IMG/VR virus record: IMGVR_UViG_3300020045_017587
Span: 1-24,400 of that record
Length of the DNA stretch: 24,400 nucleotides
Direction: 5' to 3' (one strand)
DNA from: a virus
Taxonomy: Duplodnaviria > Caudoviricetes
The notes beneath the pieces were generated by a model. It saw nothing but the letters and a program-made list of their open reading frames with translations, ran no database searches and had not been told where the DNA came from. The position numbers and the translations under genes were made by a program. Shown one piece after another: positions 9,783 to 22,546 of this stretch; the first letter of the stretch is position 1, and each line of letters opens with the position of its first letter.

Positions 9783-10838
9783 TTAAAATCCCACATCCAT
9801 CACAAACATTTTCTGTTCGTCAGGAACAGGCAGCGCATTGACTTGAACTTCGACGCTTAATTCGCGTCCGGCATTATGCTCTTCGTAAAAGGCAGTTTGT
9901 CCGTTGGTGTCGATTTTTGCCTGGGGAAGCTGGCGGGCAATATCCATCGCCCGGACAACCGGAGCAAAGGCCGCCTTGCCGACCACCGTCCCGGCCGGAA
10001 CAACCGCAATTTTTTCGGCTGTCCAAACTTTTGTAGCTGTGGTCGCCGTTCCGCCGTCGTCAAAGACTTCAACGGTATCTTCCATCGGATAGAATTTGAA
10101 TTCAGACCCCAGATCATCTTGAATTCTTGATTCCAATTGAGTCAGGGTCATCTGCGCCCCGCCGGCCAGATCGGGAGCATCGGCTAAAACTTCTTTAACA
10201 AAATTCCGGCGGCAGACCAAGCCTTTGATCCCGCCAACGGCGTTAATCGCGTCGTCAAGAAAGTCCAGTAATTCGTCATAAGCATTCAGTCCCGCATCAT
10301 TCCAGGCGGTCCCGGCGGTTTGATAACGTCCGGCATCGAAGCCGAACGATGCCTGATATGTTTCAGCCGCGTTCTGGGGGTTTCTTTGAGTAATAGTTCC
10401 CAAAGCCCAGGCTGTAAAGGCATCCACTTCCAACCGGCGGTAATTGGCCATCGCAATTGCTTTAACCTTGGCCGGAACCGACGACATCATAATCTCGGCG
10501 ATAACTGCGGCATTACCCAGCGCCCTCTCATTCAGTTTTTGGAGCTCTTTTTCGCCCCATAGGAAGTTGCCTTCAATGGGAACGATCGAAACATCTCTGA
10601 TGGTCGGTGTTTTGGTCGGGATCAGGCGGCCTCGTTGATTCCATTCACGCCGGTCTGAGGCGGGACGGTAATCCAGGGTCGTCACATCTTTCAGGTCTAC
10701 CGAATCTACCGGCTGACGCATAAAAAAGACATCCCATTTTAATTGTCCGTTGTCATTCGGACTGATAGCCTGCGCCATAACCGTCAACGCGGCTGGCGAT
10801 AATTCTTCAACTGTTTGTGTCCAAGAAAATGAACTCAT
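9783..10838 (-). CDS. Major capsid protein (lambda gpE-like)
   Basis: 351 aa with RRLEVDAFTAWALGTI..SFGFD...TAW and terminal ALPVP patterns; AGGAGG SD; follows scaffold and decoration genes. Confidence 0.88.
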   Translation of the reverse strand: MSSFSWTQTVEELSPAALTVMAQAISPNDNGQLKWDVFFMRQPVDSVDLKDVTTLDYRPASDRREWNQRGRLIPTKTPTIRDVSIVPIEGNFLWGEKELQKLNERALGNAAVIAEIMMSSVPAKVKAIAMANYRRLEVDAFTAWALGTITQRNPQNAAETYQASFGFDAGRYQTAGTAWNDAGLNAYDELLDFLDDAINAVGGIKGLVCRRNFVKEVLADAPDLAGGAQMTLTQLESRIQDDLGSEFKFYPMEDTVEVFDDGGTATTATKVWTAEKIAVVPAGTVVGKAAFAPVVRAMDIARQLPQAKIDTNGQTAFYEEHNAGRELSVEVQVNALPVPDEQKMFVMDVGF

Positions 10839-10863: not shown

Positions 10864-11262
10864 TTATGTTCTGGTCAGACGGCAGTTCGATCCTGCCAGG
10901 TCAAATCCGGCAATCTCATCGGCGGTTAAAGCGCGGCCGAGATTGTCTTCAATGATGTCCCGATTGCAGAGACCAAAGCCGACAGTTACAAAACAATCGG
11001 TTTCGGCATCCAGAATGGTGTCGGTATTGCCGGTGGTGATCTTGATCGGCTCGATGGTGACGCCCCAGACGGGAACGGCCGAACCGACTAAATTTCCGTC
11101 CTTAGCGAACGGGACGCCGGGCTTCAGGTATCCGTCCGGATCAACTTCATCATCCGAAAGATCAGAAATATCAACCTTGACGACATCCGTTCCTTGAATC
11201 TCACCGACAAAAACGGGGCTATGCGCCAAGCCGCCTGCGGTGGTACTAATTTTTAATGGCAT
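10864..11262 (-). CDS. Head decoration protein
   Basis: 132 aa between scaffold and capsid; DGYLKPGVPF motif; AGGAG SD. Confidence 0.7.
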   Translation of the reverse strand: MPLKISTTAGGLAHSPVFVGEIQGTDVVKVDISDLSDDEVDPDGYLKPGVPFAKDGNLVGSAVPVWGVTIEPIKITTGNTDTILDAETDCFVTVGFGLCNRDIIEDNLGRALTADEIAGFDLAGSNCRLTRT

Positions 11263-11283: not shown

Positions 11284-12033
11284 TCAGGCGGCTTTGCCAA
11301 ACCGCGAATCAATATCTGTTACCGGTTTTACTTCGGCTGCTTTGACGTCGGCGCGAATTTTATCGAAAATATTCTTATTTCCCGGTTCGCCGCCCTGTTC
11401 GCTGAAGGAAAATCCGGTTTCATTCTTCTTTTGCGTCAACGAATCAAAAGAGTTTTTGAACCCCTCGGCGCCCTTGAGATATTCGGCATCAAAGCCTTTT
11501 TTCTCGCGAACCCCGTTATTTTCGAGAATGACGAAAAACTTTTCCTTCCCGTCAACCGTTTCGGTTTCGATCTTCAGATTGTCGGAAGCTTTGAGTTCAA
11601 AGAATCCCTGCACATCCTCGATCCCGATGGCTTTTAAGGCCCGGGTTTTCAATTCCCGTTCGGCAGAGGAAGATTTCTCGGTTTTGAACTGGTCGTTCTC
11701 GGCCTTCAAAGTTTTGACCGAAGCAGTGCTCAATCCTTCGGCAACTGCGATCTCGCCCAGTTCGGCGACTTCCTTTTTAACGGCGCGGTAGCCGTGCGGA
11801 ACGGATTTGCCGGAAAGTTCGGTTTTTTCTCTTTCGAGATTACCGACCTGAGCGGTCAAGGAATCGTTTTGGGTTTTCAAAGTTGTTTGAGTCGATTCCA
11901 AACTTGCTTTGGTAATCATCACCGGATGATCCGTATCAAGCTTGGTCAACTCCCAACGTCCGTTTTTGTTCTCGTAGCAGCCCTTTTGGTCTGCCGGAAT
12001 CTCTGATTCGTTAGCGTAAAATGTTCTCGGCAT
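11284..12033 (-). CDS. Capsid scaffolding protein
   Basis: Likely start ATG 12033 (MPRTFYANESEIPADQKGCYENKNGRWEL), then a charged coiled coil and a Gly-rich tail. The track's extension to 12150 crosses a terminator. Confidence 0.78.
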   Translation of the reverse strand: MPRTFYANESEIPADQKGCYENKNGRWELTKLDTDHPVMITKASLESTQTTLKTQNDSLTAQVGNLEREKTELSGKSVPHGYRAVKKEVAELGEIAVAEGLSTASVKTLKAENDQFKTEKSSSAERELKTRALKAIGIEDVQGFFELKASDNLKIETETVDGKEKFFVILENNGVREKKGFDAEYLKGAEGFKNSFDSLTQKKNETGFSFSEQGGEPGNKNIFDKIRADVKAAEVKPVTDIDSRFGKAA

Positions 12034-12074
12034 ATTCTTTTGAATTGTCGTTCCGGCTTTTGCCGGGTTGGTTG

Positions 12075-12121
12075 AAATAAAAAAGCCGTGAAAATCTTCT
12101 CTTTTGAAAAGATTTTCACGG
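12075..12121 (-). terminator. Intrinsic terminator in late leader copy 1
   Basis: 16-bp stem CCGTGAAAATCTTTTC / GAGAAGATTTTCACGG with an AAAA loop, followed by CTTTTTTATTT. Confidence 0.85.
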
Positions 12122-12163
12122 TGATAACGTGCGTGTGCCAGGAAAGGCACTAATCCAAATTGT
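12075..12163 (-). ncRNA. Conserved structured late leader RNA, copy 1
   Basis: Near-identical in sequence and fold to 20665..20751, with a compensatory base-pair change in the small hairpin. Confidence 0.7.
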
Positions 12164-12170
12164 TATTTGC

Positions 12171-12200
12171 AATTTAGCTTATAAATAAAAGAATTGTCAA
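12171..12200 (-). promoter_or_regulatory. Sigma70-type promoter for the head/tail genes
   Basis: TTGACA-18-TAAATT, then 7 nt, then the conserved ACAATTT leader start. Confidence 0.65.
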
Positions 12201-16343: not shown

Positions 16344-16628
16344 TCAGGTGGGAACCCATTTTCCATCCCGGACATAACCGTGAAAACCGCAATCAGTGCA
16401 TTGAAAAGACGGGGATAAAGTCGGCTTTTCAAAGTCACCGTTGAATTCCCAAACCGGACGTTTGTCATCATCCTTAAACATCGAACGATCAAACCAAAAA
16501 GAAGCCCAGCATTCACCGGATTCATTCTTTGGGTTGGGATGGGTAATGATCCCGCCGATCCGTTTGCCTTCAGCTTGGGCCCAACCGATAAAAACCCCGT
16601 TTCCCAAATCTAAATGTTTTCTTGGCAT
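16344..16628 (-). CDS. DUF6527-like protein
   Basis: WEFNGDFEKPTLSPSFQCTDCGFHGYVRDGKW motif; AAGGA SD. Confidence 0.75.
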   Translation of the reverse strand: MPRKHLDLGNGVFIGWAQAEGKRIGGIITHPNPKNESGECWASFWFDRSMFKDDDKRPVWEFNGDFEKPTLSPSFQCTDCGFHGYVRDGKWVPT

Positions 16629-16639
16629 AAATATTTCCT

Positions 16640-16924
16640 TTATCTATTCAAAACTTCTTTCATTGAAGTCCAATCGGGTATTTCGACTGTTTGCCCTTTT
16701 AATTCATGACTGCAATCATCTAAAAACTGAATCATTCCGTCTTTGACAAAAGAATGACATCGGGGATGAGATTTAGAACCAAAGACCAAAATTGATGGCG
16801 AAACGGTTGGGTTTTCCAAATCACCGTTAAATGTCCAGGGAGGCGTCTGGATCGAATGAAGCGAACCGCAGCCCGGACAATCAAAAACCCAATAATCATC
16901 TTTAACCTTGTGAACTTTAGCCAT
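16640..16924 (-). CDS. DUF6527-like protein
   Basis: CPGCGSLH, WTFNGDLENPTVSPSIL and RCHSFVKDGMIQFLDDCSH motifs. Confidence 0.8.
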   Translation of the reverse strand: MAKVHKVKDDYWVFDCPGCGSLHSIQTPPWTFNGDLENPTVSPSILVFGSKSHPRCHSFVKDGMIQFLDDCSHELKGQTVEIPDWTSMKEVLNR

Positions 16925-19573: not shown

Positions 19574-20626
19574 TTAGGAAGGCTTTATTTCGACGTTATT
19601 TTTATCCTTACTTCCCGCCATCCAGATTTGGAGCAGTAAAGTTAATTGTTTAAAGGCTTTTTTAATGCCTAAAAGGAAAATAATCACGGTCACGATCCAC
19701 AAAACATACTTTTGGTTTTCCCTGACCATATTGAACACAAACTCCCCGATTTGGGCCGCTGAAATAAAACCTTTCTCGACAAGATCTGTGACCATTTTTA
19801 CTATCACGGCCACAAAACCCGGCAGGACGATCCCGCCGATGGTCAATTGCGTGGCTGTGGCGGTGGAACCTTCTTTGGCGGGAGCTGTGACGGTTTCAGT
19901 TTTACCCGGTTCGGGCGGCGCGGTGGAAGTTTCCACTTTGACCTCTCCCGATTCCGACACTTCCACTTTGGTAGTTTCCTGAACCACAGGCTGCACAGCC
20001 TCAAGTTTTTGGGCGTCAATTACCAAACCCACATTTTCGGGTGTTACCTCATCACAATTAAAATTCTCTTTTCTGAACTTTTCGTAAAAATTTTTCATTT
20101 TTACGTCGTATTGATTTATCTTGTAGTTTTTGCCGTTGTAGCCACGGGCGAAACCCGCCCAATCGCCACGCCGGAGTTCATCATCAAGATTGTTTTGGAT
20201 GACAAAATTACAGAAAGCTTTGAGATGATTGCCTTCATTAACCTTCATCGCGTCCACAAAATCATTGACGGAAGTAAACCCGCAAATTCCGTGATTAAAT
20301 CCCATTATCTGGAATTTCCCCCAACTACATGACATCATGGCGGCTTTCGGATTTAGCGCAAAGGCTTCGGTAAAACGGATGTATTCTTTTTCGTTCCCGT
20401 AATAACCGCCCGCCTTCGGATTGGAAATTTGGGGATATTCGGCATCAAATTTATGGTTAGTGAGTCTTGCGAAATGATGTCTCTCGAACAAAATTTTGAC
20501 CTTTCCTGAAAGTAGGAATCCGCTTCCGGCCGATTCGACGGTTGCCACGGCGCGGATTTTTGCCACCTCACAATTGAGTGCTTTAGCGGCATCACAATAA
20601 TCTTTTAGGCTTAAAAATTTACTCAT
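19574..20626 (-). CDS. Endolysin: N-acetylmuramidase (DUF3380-type) with C-terminal membrane segments
   Basis: VESAGSGF, KILFERH, SWGKFQIMGFNH and DWAGFARGYNG..N.YD motifs. Likely start ATG 20626; hydrophobic C-terminal helices. Confidence 0.92.
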   Translation of the reverse strand: MSKFLSLKDYCDAAKALNCEVAKIRAVATVESAGSGFLLSGKVKILFERHHFARLTNHKFDAEYPQISNPKAGGYYGNEKEYIRFTEAFALNPKAAMMSCSWGKFQIMGFNHGICGFTSVNDFVDAMKVNEGNHLKAFCNFVIQNNLDDELRRGDWAGFARGYNGKNYKINQYDVKMKNFYEKFRKENFNCDEVTPENVGLVIDAQKLEAVQPVVQETTKVEVSESGEVKVETSTAPPEPGKTETVTAPAKEGSTATATQLTIGGIVLPGFVAVIVKMVTDLVEKGFISAAQIGEFVFNMVRENQKYVLWIVTVIIFLLGIKKAFKQLTLLLQIWMAGSKDKNNVEIKPS

Positions 20627-20664: not shown

Positions 20665-20713
20665 AAAAATAAAAGCCGTGAAGACCTTCTTTTTTTAAAA
20701 AGATGTTCACGGC
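20665..20713 (-). terminator. Intrinsic terminator in late leader copy 2
   Basis: Stem GCCGTGAA-C-ATCTTTTT / AAGAAGGT-C-TTCACGGC followed by TTTTATTTTT. Confidence 0.85.
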
Positions 20714-20751
20714 GATAACGTGCGCGGCATAACGCCACTAATCTAAATTGT
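20665..20751 (-). ncRNA. Conserved structured late leader RNA, copy 2
   Basis: Homologous to 12075..12163. Confidence 0.7.
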
Positions 20752-20758
20752 CAGAACT

Positions 20759-20787
20759 AAAATAATCGAAATTAATGCGATTTGCAA
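20759..20787 (-). promoter_or_regulatory. Sigma70-type promoter for the lysis/packaging genes
   Basis: TTGCAA-17-TATTTT, then 7 nt, then ACAATTT; the -10 to start distance is the same as in copy 1. Confidence 0.65.
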
Positions 20788-20803: not shown

Positions 20804-21031
20804 TCAGTACTTCCTCTGGTAAATGATAACATTCCGATCCGGAGGCGAATTATTCTGCCCGATAAATCTCCGTCGCCGGTGCCAAAGTAAAACTTTGTTG
20901 CAGTTCGGGCAATCAAACCTTTGCCCGTCCAGTTCGGGATTGATCACCCGTTGTTCCAGATAAACAAATTGACCGTCTGTTTCATAGACAAATTCGTCGC
21001 ACCGCGGACAGCAAACCCATTTTTTTTTCAT
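20804..21031 (-). CDS. Zinc-ribbon protein (Com/Ogr-like size), candidate late regulator
   Basis: CPRC...CPNC followed by WHRRRRF; lies immediately upstream of the late promoter. Confidence 0.7.
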   Translation of the reverse strand: MKKKWVCCPRCDEFVYETDGQFVYLEQRVINPELDGQRFDCPNCNKVLLWHRRRRFIGQNNSPPDRNVIIYQRKY

Positions 21032-21151: not shown

Positions 21152-21331
21152 TTATTTTGCTTTTAATTTTCTTTCAATTGTTTCCAACGCTAATTCCACA
21201 ATTCGGTTAATCGGCAGTTTGTCGGCTTCCCATCGATAGACGGTATTTTGTTTGACATCCAACAACTCAGCCAATTTTGTTTGGGTAAGTTCTAATCTTT
21301 CTCTTAACTTTCTTAATTCTGCACCTTTCAT
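21152..21331 (-). CDS. XRE/Cro-family HTH regulator (59 aa, not in the ORF track)
   Basis: Hand translation: MKGAELRKLRERLELTQTKLAELLDVKQNTVYRWEADKLPINRIVELALETIERKLKAK. No SD, so possibly leaderless. Confidence 0.92.
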   Translation of the reverse strand: MKGAELRKLRERLELTQTKLAELLDVKQNTVYRWEADKLPINRIVELALETIERKLKAK

Positions 21332-21364
21332 ACTTAAAGATAAATAACATAATTTTTTTAATAA

Positions 21365-21434
21365 ATCTACTAAAAGTAGTAAATAATCCTTGACTTACTA
21401 CTTAAAGTCGTATAATATACTACTTAAGGTAGTA
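21365..21434 (+). promoter_or_regulatory. Promoter with three palindromic operators (TACTAC-N5-GTAGTA)
   Basis: Operators at 21365-21381, 21396-21412 and 21418-21434 (the last is perfect). The promoter TTGACT-17-TAATAT has operator 2 as its spacer; a TATAAT overlaps the -10. Confidence 0.88.
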
Positions 21435-21455
21435 AAACAAAGGAGAAATAAACAA

Positions 21456-22004
21456 ATGATGAACAACCAACCAAAACAACTAACTAAATTAGAAATCGGT
21501 GATGAAATCGGTTTCGTGACCTTAGCCCAAAATGTTGACGAAAATGACCGCGTGGTTTTCTTTCCAGTGGTTGAAGTAACCAGCCGCGACGGCGAACGTG
21601 CTTATCGTTATCAATATCCAGACGGAAATATTTCGGGCGTGGCAATCAAAGAATCGAATCTTGATAACTACACAATCAAAATCCACCGGTGCGAGGTTAT
21701 CGCACCACAAGTCGAAAATGTTCCAAATTTAGCAATTTGCCTAAATGACCGCAAAGACGAATTTAAATCAGCCCTTAAACGCGGGGCCGAAGAAAATCTC
21801 GAAGTTTTTGCCGGTTGGGACAGAGACACTTTTCACGTTGTCAATAAAACCAACGGTTCGGACTATCGCGTCGAGTTTGAAACGGTTGACGGGAGGATTT
21901 ACGCCGAATGCGAATGCAAAGATTTCATTTTTCGGAAGCGCGTGTGTAAGCACATTTCGGCCACCCTTCAAGAACAATTTTTCGGCATCAGCTTGGCGGT
22001 TTAA
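21456..22004 (+). CDS. SWIM zinc-finger protein
   Basis: C-terminal YRVEF..CECKDF....VCKHI motif; AGGAGA SD before ATG 21456. Confidence 0.88.
   Translation: MMNNQPKQLTKLEIGDEIGFVTLAQNVDENDRVVFFPVVEVTSRDGERAYRYQYPDGNISGVAIKESNLDNYTIKIHRCEVIAPQVENVPNLAICLNDRKDEFKSALKRGAEENLEVFAGWDRDTFHVVNKTNGSDYRVEFETVDGRIYAECECKDFIFRKRVCKHISATLQEQFFGISLAV

Positions 22005-22504: not shown

Positions 22505-22546
<42 letters not shown>

Follow-up and report, generated by a model that had tools for sequence, protein, structure and literature searches.

The window considered here, a 24.4-kb virus record taken over its whole length, contains one unit of about 85 nt twice, in each case between a predicted sigma70-type promoter and a strong terminator, once ahead of the lysis genes and once ahead of the capsid genes. 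This arrangement raises the question of why a phage would place the same short leader in front of both late gene blocks, and the pairing possibilities of that leader suggest an answer, as it is likely to be an on/off RNA switch for late genes of a kind not described before.

Gene order and host

The late genes of the window are read on the minus strand, on which the order is integrase, an attP-like half tRNA-Cys, an HTH gene, a 75-aa cysteine-rich gene, copy 2 of the unit and the endolysin, followed by small genes, the terminases (matches to terminase PHROGs), a predicted portal gene, an 88-aa gene, copy 1, the predicted scaffold gene, and the capsid and tail genes. The landmarks are:

22505-22545: half of a tRNA-Cys beside the integrase gene, the likely attP core
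20804-21031, minus strand: gene for a 75-aa four-cysteine zinc ribbon, the candidate activator, with its stop codon 17 nt 5' of the copy-2 promoter
19574-20626, minus strand: endolysin (N-acetylmuramidase), the first gene after copy 2 (PF11860, E 3e-59; phrog_1224)
11284-12033, minus strand: predicted scaffold gene, the first after copy 1, labelled from its position before the capsid gene
10864-11262, minus strand: decoration gene, labelled from its position
9783-10838, minus strand: major capsid gene, matching phrog_29

The half tRNA-Cys matches tRNA-Cys genes in all five of the Pyrinomonadaceae-family genomes tried. The named relatives of the window are Pyrinomonadaceae and Chloracidobacterium assemblies, and the record is therefore most likely a temperate phage of Blastocatellia (Acidobacteriota); its capsid is absent from the annotated phage records searched. 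Two DUF6527 genes also stand in tandem at 16344-16924, ahead of the small terminase gene.

Extent of the units and their promoters

A sequence-only reading had proposed a duplicated unit in this DNA, and both copies are found where it placed them, on the minus strand at 12163-12075 (copy 1) and 20751-20665 (copy 2), with no third copy in the window. Their claimed likeness is well above chance, with a local alignment score of 104 against a best of 48 in 100 Markov-shuffled windows, and when the terminator is left off, the remaining 44 nt still reach 46, where the null does not exceed 39. The likeness starts 7 nt past the -10 box, after TAAATT (12176-12171) and TATTTT (20764-20759), and ends at the U-tract, just as had been described, the DNA 5' of the start and past the U-tract being unrelated between the copies. 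A coding role of the leader was rejected, as the copies differ by non-triplet indels. The predicted promoter elements are:

12171-12200, minus strand: TTGACA-18-TAAATT, the sigma70-type promoter predicted for copy 1 (head block), 10/12 in the consensus scan
12159-12164, minus strand: AACAAT, a -10-like hexamer at the start predicted for copy 1, offset by 6 nt from TAAATT and possibly a sigma-dependent pause element
20759-20787, minus strand: TTGCAA-17-TATTTT, the promoter predicted for copy 2 (lysis-packaging block) from the sequence, the spacing being the same in all 16 copies compared
20747-20752, minus strand: GACAAT, a -10-like hexamer of presumed function at the start predicted for copy 2

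The consensus scan lists a promoter and a terminator for copy 1 only, and the copy-2 promoter (8/12) and its interrupted terminator were located by script; for both units, the start sites and the termination are predictions. The 16 copies of the anatomy table, which comprise the window pair, six further pairs and the single copies of L034 and G270, all present a TTG-type -35, 17-18 nt, a TAnnnT -10 and then the leader. The rRNA promoters of the host are TTGACA/TATAAT, with which the sigma70 reading of the unit promoters fits.

This layout also brings to mind lambda pR' (TTGACT-17-TAAATT-6-AACGAT), where the hexamer offset is 6 nt, as in the window and in L004, and where the -10-like AACGAT causes a pause at +16/+17 (PMC5001585). 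The units could thus be read as sites of Q-type processive antitermination, in which a phage protein loads on the polymerase paused at the +1 hexamer and enables it to pass terminators, with the RNA helices being secondary. Both window copies have a pyrimidine-G step at +16/+17, the pause position of lambda, and an A..T hexamer lies 5-9 nt past the -10 in 15 of the 16 copies, 13 of them with 4/6 consensus matches, although the word is AT-rich and the count has no null. By this analogy, the conserved ACAAT may not belong to the RNA motif but be a sigma pause element that is read in the DNA, and the zinc-ribbon gene occupies the position of lambda Q.

On the other hand, a box for such a protein is not shared by the -35/-10 spacers, which have a single invariant T, and whose identity between paired copies averages 8.4 of 17 within genomes versus 7.2 +/- 2.5 between genomes (5/17 in the window pair). 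The lack of a clear shared protein-binding box agrees with the earlier view that the gate is specified by the RNA and not by the promoter. In addition, L034 has no hexamer and yet keeps P2, a covarying helix of the leader for which a Q-type mechanism has no role, and the candidate protein is modelled as all-beta, unlike the helix-turn-helix fold of AlpA and Q21 (PMC9371919). Processive antitermination of this type is accordingly regarded as unlikely here.

Helices of the leader and the terminator

The small hairpins (GTGCC/GGCAC and GTGGC/GCCGC) and the two terminators fold as the sequence-only reading had described, and two further predicted pairings, P0 and P2, join them:

12153-12155, minus strand: P0 5' strand GAT of copy 1, whose predicted partner is the ATC (12125-12123) of the P2 loop
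12135-12150, minus strand: P1 hairpin GTGCC-TTTCCT-GGCAC of copy 1, predicted fold
12117-12131, minus strand: P2 antiterminator hairpin CACG-TTATCAC-CGTG of copy 1, in the MFE fold of the transcript without the terminator 3' arm, mean pair probability 0.96
12079-12121, minus strand: predicted intrinsic terminator of copy 1, a 16-bp stem (12121-12086) and U-tract, -22 kcal/mol
20724-20743, minus strand: P0 5' strand GAT (20743-20741) and P1 hairpin GTGGC-GTTAT-GCCGC of copy 2, predicted fold
20708-20722, minus strand: CACG-TTATCGC-CGTG, the P2 antiterminator hairpin of copy 2, which forms with a mean pair probability of 0.87 when the transcript is truncated
20665-20712, minus strand: predicted intrinsic terminator of copy 2, a stem (20712-20676) and U-tract, -15 kcal/mol

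On its late strand, the window has no other hairpin followed by a U-tract that is more stable than -13 kcal/mol. Over the 16 copies, 12 columns of the terminator stem are 95% paired, 10 of the 12 with double changes, and this covariation exceeds all 500 shuffles and all slid controls.

The helix on which a switch would turn is P2, which the earlier reading did not contain. By its predicted pairing, the conserved CGCACG supplies the 5' side of P2, an antiterminator helix overlapping with the terminator: in the window, the linker CACG pairs with CGTG, and the 3' strand of P2 is the base of the terminator 5' arm. Across the copies, P2 is a simple hairpin of 15-21 nt with a loop of 7-10 nt, in which AWCRC is near-constant, and its stem covaries, with TCGAG/CTCGA in G196, GCAAAG/CTTTGC in L034, GCAAG or GCGAG/CTTGC in G380, GTAAG/CTTGC in G270, ACAAG/CTTGT in G517 and GAAAG/CTTTC in both copies of G383.

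P2 reaches 4-6 bp in all 16 copies, whereas 3 of 68 other terminators of the fetched DNA have at least 4 bp, and it reaches at least 5 bp in 12 of the 16 copies (0/68 in the same comparison); for the first 13 copies, the summed Watson-Crick length is 58, against a mean of 38 and a maximum of 50 in 5000 shuffles. These counts overstate independence, because the copies are related, and the helix counts in general come from motif-anchored scripts rather than a curated alignment, with rules fixed after the family was seen. Two copies with altered terminator bases form 5-6 bp with their own linker, whereas their linkers form just 2-3 bp with the arms of other copies.

When transcripts are cut ahead of the terminator 3' arm, as was done to fold P2, they fold to P1 and P2, and the mean P2 pair probability is at least 0.7 in 13/16. 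The helix is partial in G001_head (0.40) and G343_lys (0.49), and its register is a different one in G270 (probability 0.03). G390 has a weak P2 of 3 bp, and in the window the helix has only 4 bp, which alone are not significant (p 0.21).

The place of P1 is taken by a hairpin of 4-9 bp in 16/16 copies, with stems and loops (4-12 nt) that vary freely, and with additional outer pairing in L034. P0 forms 3 Watson-Crick pairs in 14 of the 16 copies (shuffle mean 3.8, maximum 10) in the covarying variants GAT/ATC, GTT/AAC and GTC/GAC; it is broken in G001_lys, shifted in L034 and longer, by eye, in G517 and G390 (GTTGA/TCAAC) and in G538 (GGTT/AACC). As P0 crosses P2, it would be either a short pseudoknot of the ON fold or a competing fold, and in L004, whose P0 is extendable to 6-7 bp, the two helices at full length would be mutually exclusive.

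The two copies of one genome may differ in the P1 loop, as in the window, or in the P2 stem, as in G196, with P0 and the P2 loop being kept, so that a single factor would most likely read the core formed by P0 and the P2 loop. These differences also bear on two other accounts of the pair, in which the main product is a small RNA acting in trans, or the duplication is neutral and the copies are kept alike by gene conversion. Terminated late leaders can indeed act as sRNAs (PMC7547250), and the most similar copies are often those of one genome (84% in G380, 80% in L004). However, the window contains no antisense partner, and compensatory changes couple each linker with the terminator of the same copy, also in G196, where the two copies differ, which makes both accounts hardly credible as the main explanation; a role as sRNA on top of the switch may exist.

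The motif, which had not been recognised from the sequence, has no match in an Rfam scan at either copy (E up to 1), and none of the Rfam 15 covariance models matches in nine loci with relatives of the element (E up to 5). A short likeness to Cas9 tracrRNA and T-box RNA was dropped, as Rfam gives it no support.

Distribution among relatives

In six further records the pair stands before lysis and head genes, and three helices covary, in line with the earlier reading of an RNA-specified gate that is used twice. The copies precede a lysis gene and a scaffold gene in L004, G343, G001:C15, G617 and G380, and a lysis gene and a portal gene (of the Mu type) instead of a scaffold gene in G196. This placement is kept though the lysins differ (muramidase versus M15 peptidase) and the head modules differ, and the hosts of these six phages or prophages are Pyrinomonadaceae where named. 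G618 and G619, with the same terminators and spacing as G343, were left uncounted, and L034 and G270 have single copies.

A strict pattern of the element was found in 3 of 401 host-family genomes, with all five matches in late regions and none in the controls, and the element is therefore not a dispersed host repeat; a plain dispersed repeat would have spoken against the earlier reading. Later searches added two copies in G538, one of them ahead of a scaffold-like gene, two in G383, single elements in G517 and G390, and near-identical G270-type elements in three relatives of G270 (G396, G442 and G457), and in a phylum-wide sample of 151 genomes the element is present in G001 only. No public runs with RNA data are listed for the element, and one public DNA run contains a relative similar to L004.

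Within the capsid family of the window, a second copy of a locus' own scaffold leader is convincing in 1 of 29 loci, counted after nine duplicate and four short loci had been dropped, and in 2 of 13 larger records, so that duplication of the leader is not general in this family. L002 and L058 are slightly above the null, with unconvincing alignments, and L001 has a capsid 85% identical to that of the window and a different leader.

Several other matches were rejected. An exact scan of viral contigs with the motif of the sequence-only reading gave 0 matches, and a 19-nt core gave one, inside a coding region and attributed to chance. The covariance-model matches in G021, G036, G041, G169, G338, G348 and G343:C25 lack the promoter layout and are plain terminators, and in G196 a weak third match (L126:6131) belongs to an unrelated inverted repeat, of which it makes up one half.

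Some elements and leaders depart from the arrangement of the window. The elements at G517:C2 46251-46359 (L201) and in G383:C75 (L200) lie 5' of genes for an IPT/TIG-domain protein and an unnamed protein, respectively, and thus ahead of neither lysis nor head genes. In the distant capsid relatives L048 (6355-6470) and G285 (L102, ~4225), a remote zinc-ribbon gene stands directly ahead of the scaffold promoter, and the leader of L048 folds into P1 and a 5-bp helix between linker and terminator with a 12-nt loop, so that the element family may be wider than the model detects. By eye, a short direct repeat flanks a small hairpin in the scaffold leaders of L003, L024 and L043, with the second repeat as the terminator base. 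In G196 (L125, 4291-4413), the portal start codon lies within the 3' side of the terminator, and the switch could therefore also control translation there.

A separate motif, CCAACC with a hairpin of 4-6 bp, lies between the terminator and the scaffold start at 12053-12073 of the window (minus strand); it occurs in 9 of the 34 scaffold leaders checked, including those of phages without the switch, is also present in L004, L013, L015, L044, L050, L053 and L055, and possibly serves translational control of the scaffold gene. Finally, G001:C15 (L105, 1-1541) has genes resembling queC, queD and queE, by eye, between its lysis and packaging genes, which suggests 7-deazaguanine chemistry.

The zinc-ribbon gene and other candidate factors

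A homologue of the zinc ribbon lies 5' of a copy, within ~2 kb, in all seven records in which that DNA is present (the window, L004, G343, G617, G196, G380 and G270), the contig of G001:C15 ending too soon. A profile of the family gave 68 matches, and 54 aligned matches with five seeds make up 59 rows with four invariant cysteines. The structure model is an all-beta zinc ribbon (pLDDT 84). Fold searches with it stayed short of significance (best Foldseek E 0.3; best Z 2.4), as did a search of PDB sequences (best E 0.011), negatives that carry little weight. A homologue search with the single protein found nothing, an Atlas search returned unnamed clusters only, and viral contigs gave two known loci and three weak matches, of which the one viewed is unrelated.

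A protein-only search of 351 host-family genomes found 20 zinc-ribbon matches in 15 genomes, with an element at most 1.5 kb downstream in 10, at ~1.9 kb in an eleventh and absent nearby in nine. Four of the ten linked matches (G270, G396, G442 and G457) are near-identical, and the nine without an element include partial or broken genes and two with less than 1 kb of downstream DNA.

Among 107 ORFs from the early regions of four prophages with different replication modules, genes common to all are those for CI-like, Cro-like, SWIM and zinc-ribbon proteins. No Q-like family, and no ANTAR, CAT or NusG family, was found among the 52 (Pfam) and 50 (PHROGs) early proteins of these prophages, a scan that left out proteins >330 aa and some opposite-strand ORFs and could miss a distant Q fold; the window itself has few early genes. 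On the phage side, the searches hit no ANTAR domain in either the window or the scanned prophage proteins. A 74-aa protein of G380, sigma-r4-like by eye, was discarded, as it has no family match and is not common to relatives.

As SWIM is common to the four prophages, in which it follows the Cro-like gene, and is present in the window (21390-22004), it is the second candidate factor. In the window, the SWIM-domain gene is divergent from a 59-aa HTH gene, and the two occupy 21152-22004, on the stretch that separates the att site from the zinc-ribbon gene.

It is thus conceivable that the same RNA switch is held by something else, which could be the SWIM protein, a factor of the host or, as in a riboswitch, a small molecule. 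Crossing helices, with a terminator that invades one of them, are a riboswitch design, and the topology of P0, P1 and P2 resembles it, in addition to the SWIM gene being shared. Against a riboswitch stands the lack of an Rfam match even at the permissive E values used above (1-5), and against the other holders stands G270:C83 6682-10022 (L161), where a cassette pairs the zinc-ribbon gene with the element ahead of a 982-aa gene without a Pfam family, with no match to the window SWIM protein or the other phage proteins tested within 20 kb. A holder of this kind is considered improbable, and the neighbouring zinc ribbon is probably the factor of the switch, with a presumed ability to bind RNA. 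The G270 cassette, which is flanked by opposite-strand genes for a glycosyltransferase and an FkbM methyltransferase, is possibly domesticated.

Comparison with known systems

The phage late-gene switches found in the literature (Q, AlpA, GafZ and BrrG) act on DNA and polymerase. The closest is lambda pR'-tR' with Q, along with Q21, AlpA, BrrG and GafZ, which shares a promoter predicted to be always on, a short terminated leader before lysis or virion genes, the -10-like hexamer 6 nt past the -10 and a regulator candidate directly upstream. Unlike it, the element is conserved in the transcript and not in the -35/-10 spacer, has a covarying antiterminator helix over the terminator, provides two gates per genome, and is accompanied by an all-beta zinc ribbon, with no Q-like protein found.

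In the ANTAR dual-hairpin and the BglG/SacY RAT systems, one or more hairpins precede a terminator, one of them being mutually exclusive with it, and a protein is needed (PMC3369931 and PMC12591593). The element resembles the ANTAR target in its two hairpins, P1 and P2, of which the second overlaps the terminator in truncated folds, but the loops of P2 (7-10 nt) and P1 (4-12 nt) are not A1/G4 hexaloops. It also has the additional P0 pairing, no ANTAR or CAT domain was hit in the scanned proteins, and it would control phage late genes rather than metabolism. The RAT, in turn, is a stem-loop of ~30 nt, larger than the P2 of the element, with no Rfam match of the latter to it.

Phage Mu offers a precedent in Com, a small zinc finger with four cysteines whose target is an RNA hairpin (PMC6483171), and Com/mom thus shares with the present case such a protein and an RNA hairpin beside an inhibitory structure. 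Com activates translation, however, whereas the target of the element would be a transcription terminator, and the GAGNNCC site of Com is not conserved in the element. Likeness of the zinc ribbon to Com (PF10122) is weak, in 2 of the 59 members, with a best E of 0.0041, below the family cut-off, and with none for the window protein.

Another comparison is offered by HK022 putL and putR, which are ~70-nt RNAs with two stems, two per phage, just past the promoter, with no phage protein needed and a weak -10-like sequence at putL (PMC9378689). By analogy, the units could work without a factor, either as a put-like RNA that binds polymerase, put itself working through the beta' zinc-binding domain, or as a fixed attenuator with a leak set by P2 and timing at initiation. 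However, put serves early genes, and is processive and suppresses distant terminators, whereas the element contains and overlaps its own terminator, a structure stable by 15-23 kcal/mol, and constitutive read-through into lysis genes would presumably harm the lysogen. A factor-free mode is therefore held to be very unlikely.

GP20-a and GP20-b (Rfam; PMC10690425) are likewise predicted cis-acting structured RNAs 5' of phage structural genes; five motif strings of the element are absent from the six supplement files of that paper that were searched, with a bare listing possible in three others. The rRNA leaders of the host share the word GAT[ACG]TTTGAAAACTAGATA, which the element lacks. We take this word to be the boxA of rRNA/nut antitermination. 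A profile of the element has no match in four rRNA loci (best E 0.78).

The literature searched, which included few subscription papers, contains no description of this leader RNA or of an RNA-level phage late switch of such a type, and the word "phage" is absent from the main text of a 2025 review of RNA-binding antiterminators (PMC12591593). The element is real and conserved, and constitutes a new RNA family whose antiterminator covaries and to which a protein family, itself unnamed, is linked; a regulatory function can be provisionally assigned to the element.

Proposed mechanism and its meaning

The reading that we favour, with moderate confidence, is that each unit is a local terminator/antiterminator RNA switch, in which P2 is held by a phage protein, probably the neighbouring zinc ribbon. 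The sigma70-type promoter would be always on and would make the leader from its predicted start, with P2 pairing with the base of the terminator 5' arm. Without the protein, the terminator 3' arm (CACGG) would displace the weak 4-6 bp P2, transcription would stop and an RNA of ~85 nt would be released, so that the lysis and capsid genes would be off in the lysogen and early in infection.

Once the zinc ribbon is made, late in the early/replication operon, it would hold P2, perhaps with P0, by direct contact with the RNA, and the terminator could not close, which would allow the polymerase to proceed to the lysis-packaging genes and, when started at the second promoter, to the head genes. That second promoter would boost the head genes. 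A sigma pause like that of lambda pR' may be contributed by the -10-like hexamer at +1. A switch that acts locally has to be present at each terminator, and the duplication fits this mechanism.

A broader proposal is put forward only tentatively, as a possibility short of an expectation. In it, the unnamed zinc-ribbon family binds a pseudoknotted leader and blocks the intrinsic terminator locally, so that each late block has a gate of its own in place of a processive Q; acidobacterial hosts would also have adopted the cassette of gene and leader to gate non-phage genes, and the variants may form orthogonal protein-RNA pairs.

The natural variants of the element are ready tests of cross-specificity, as well as small regulatory parts. 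Protein-held terminator/antiterminator RNAs have so far been described for host metabolism, and, if the favoured reading is right, it would join this type of control to phage late genes through a new RNA family and a protein family of ~70 aa that time the lysis and capsid genes in phages of Acidobacteriota, and would explain the delay of late genes in phages in which no Q is found.
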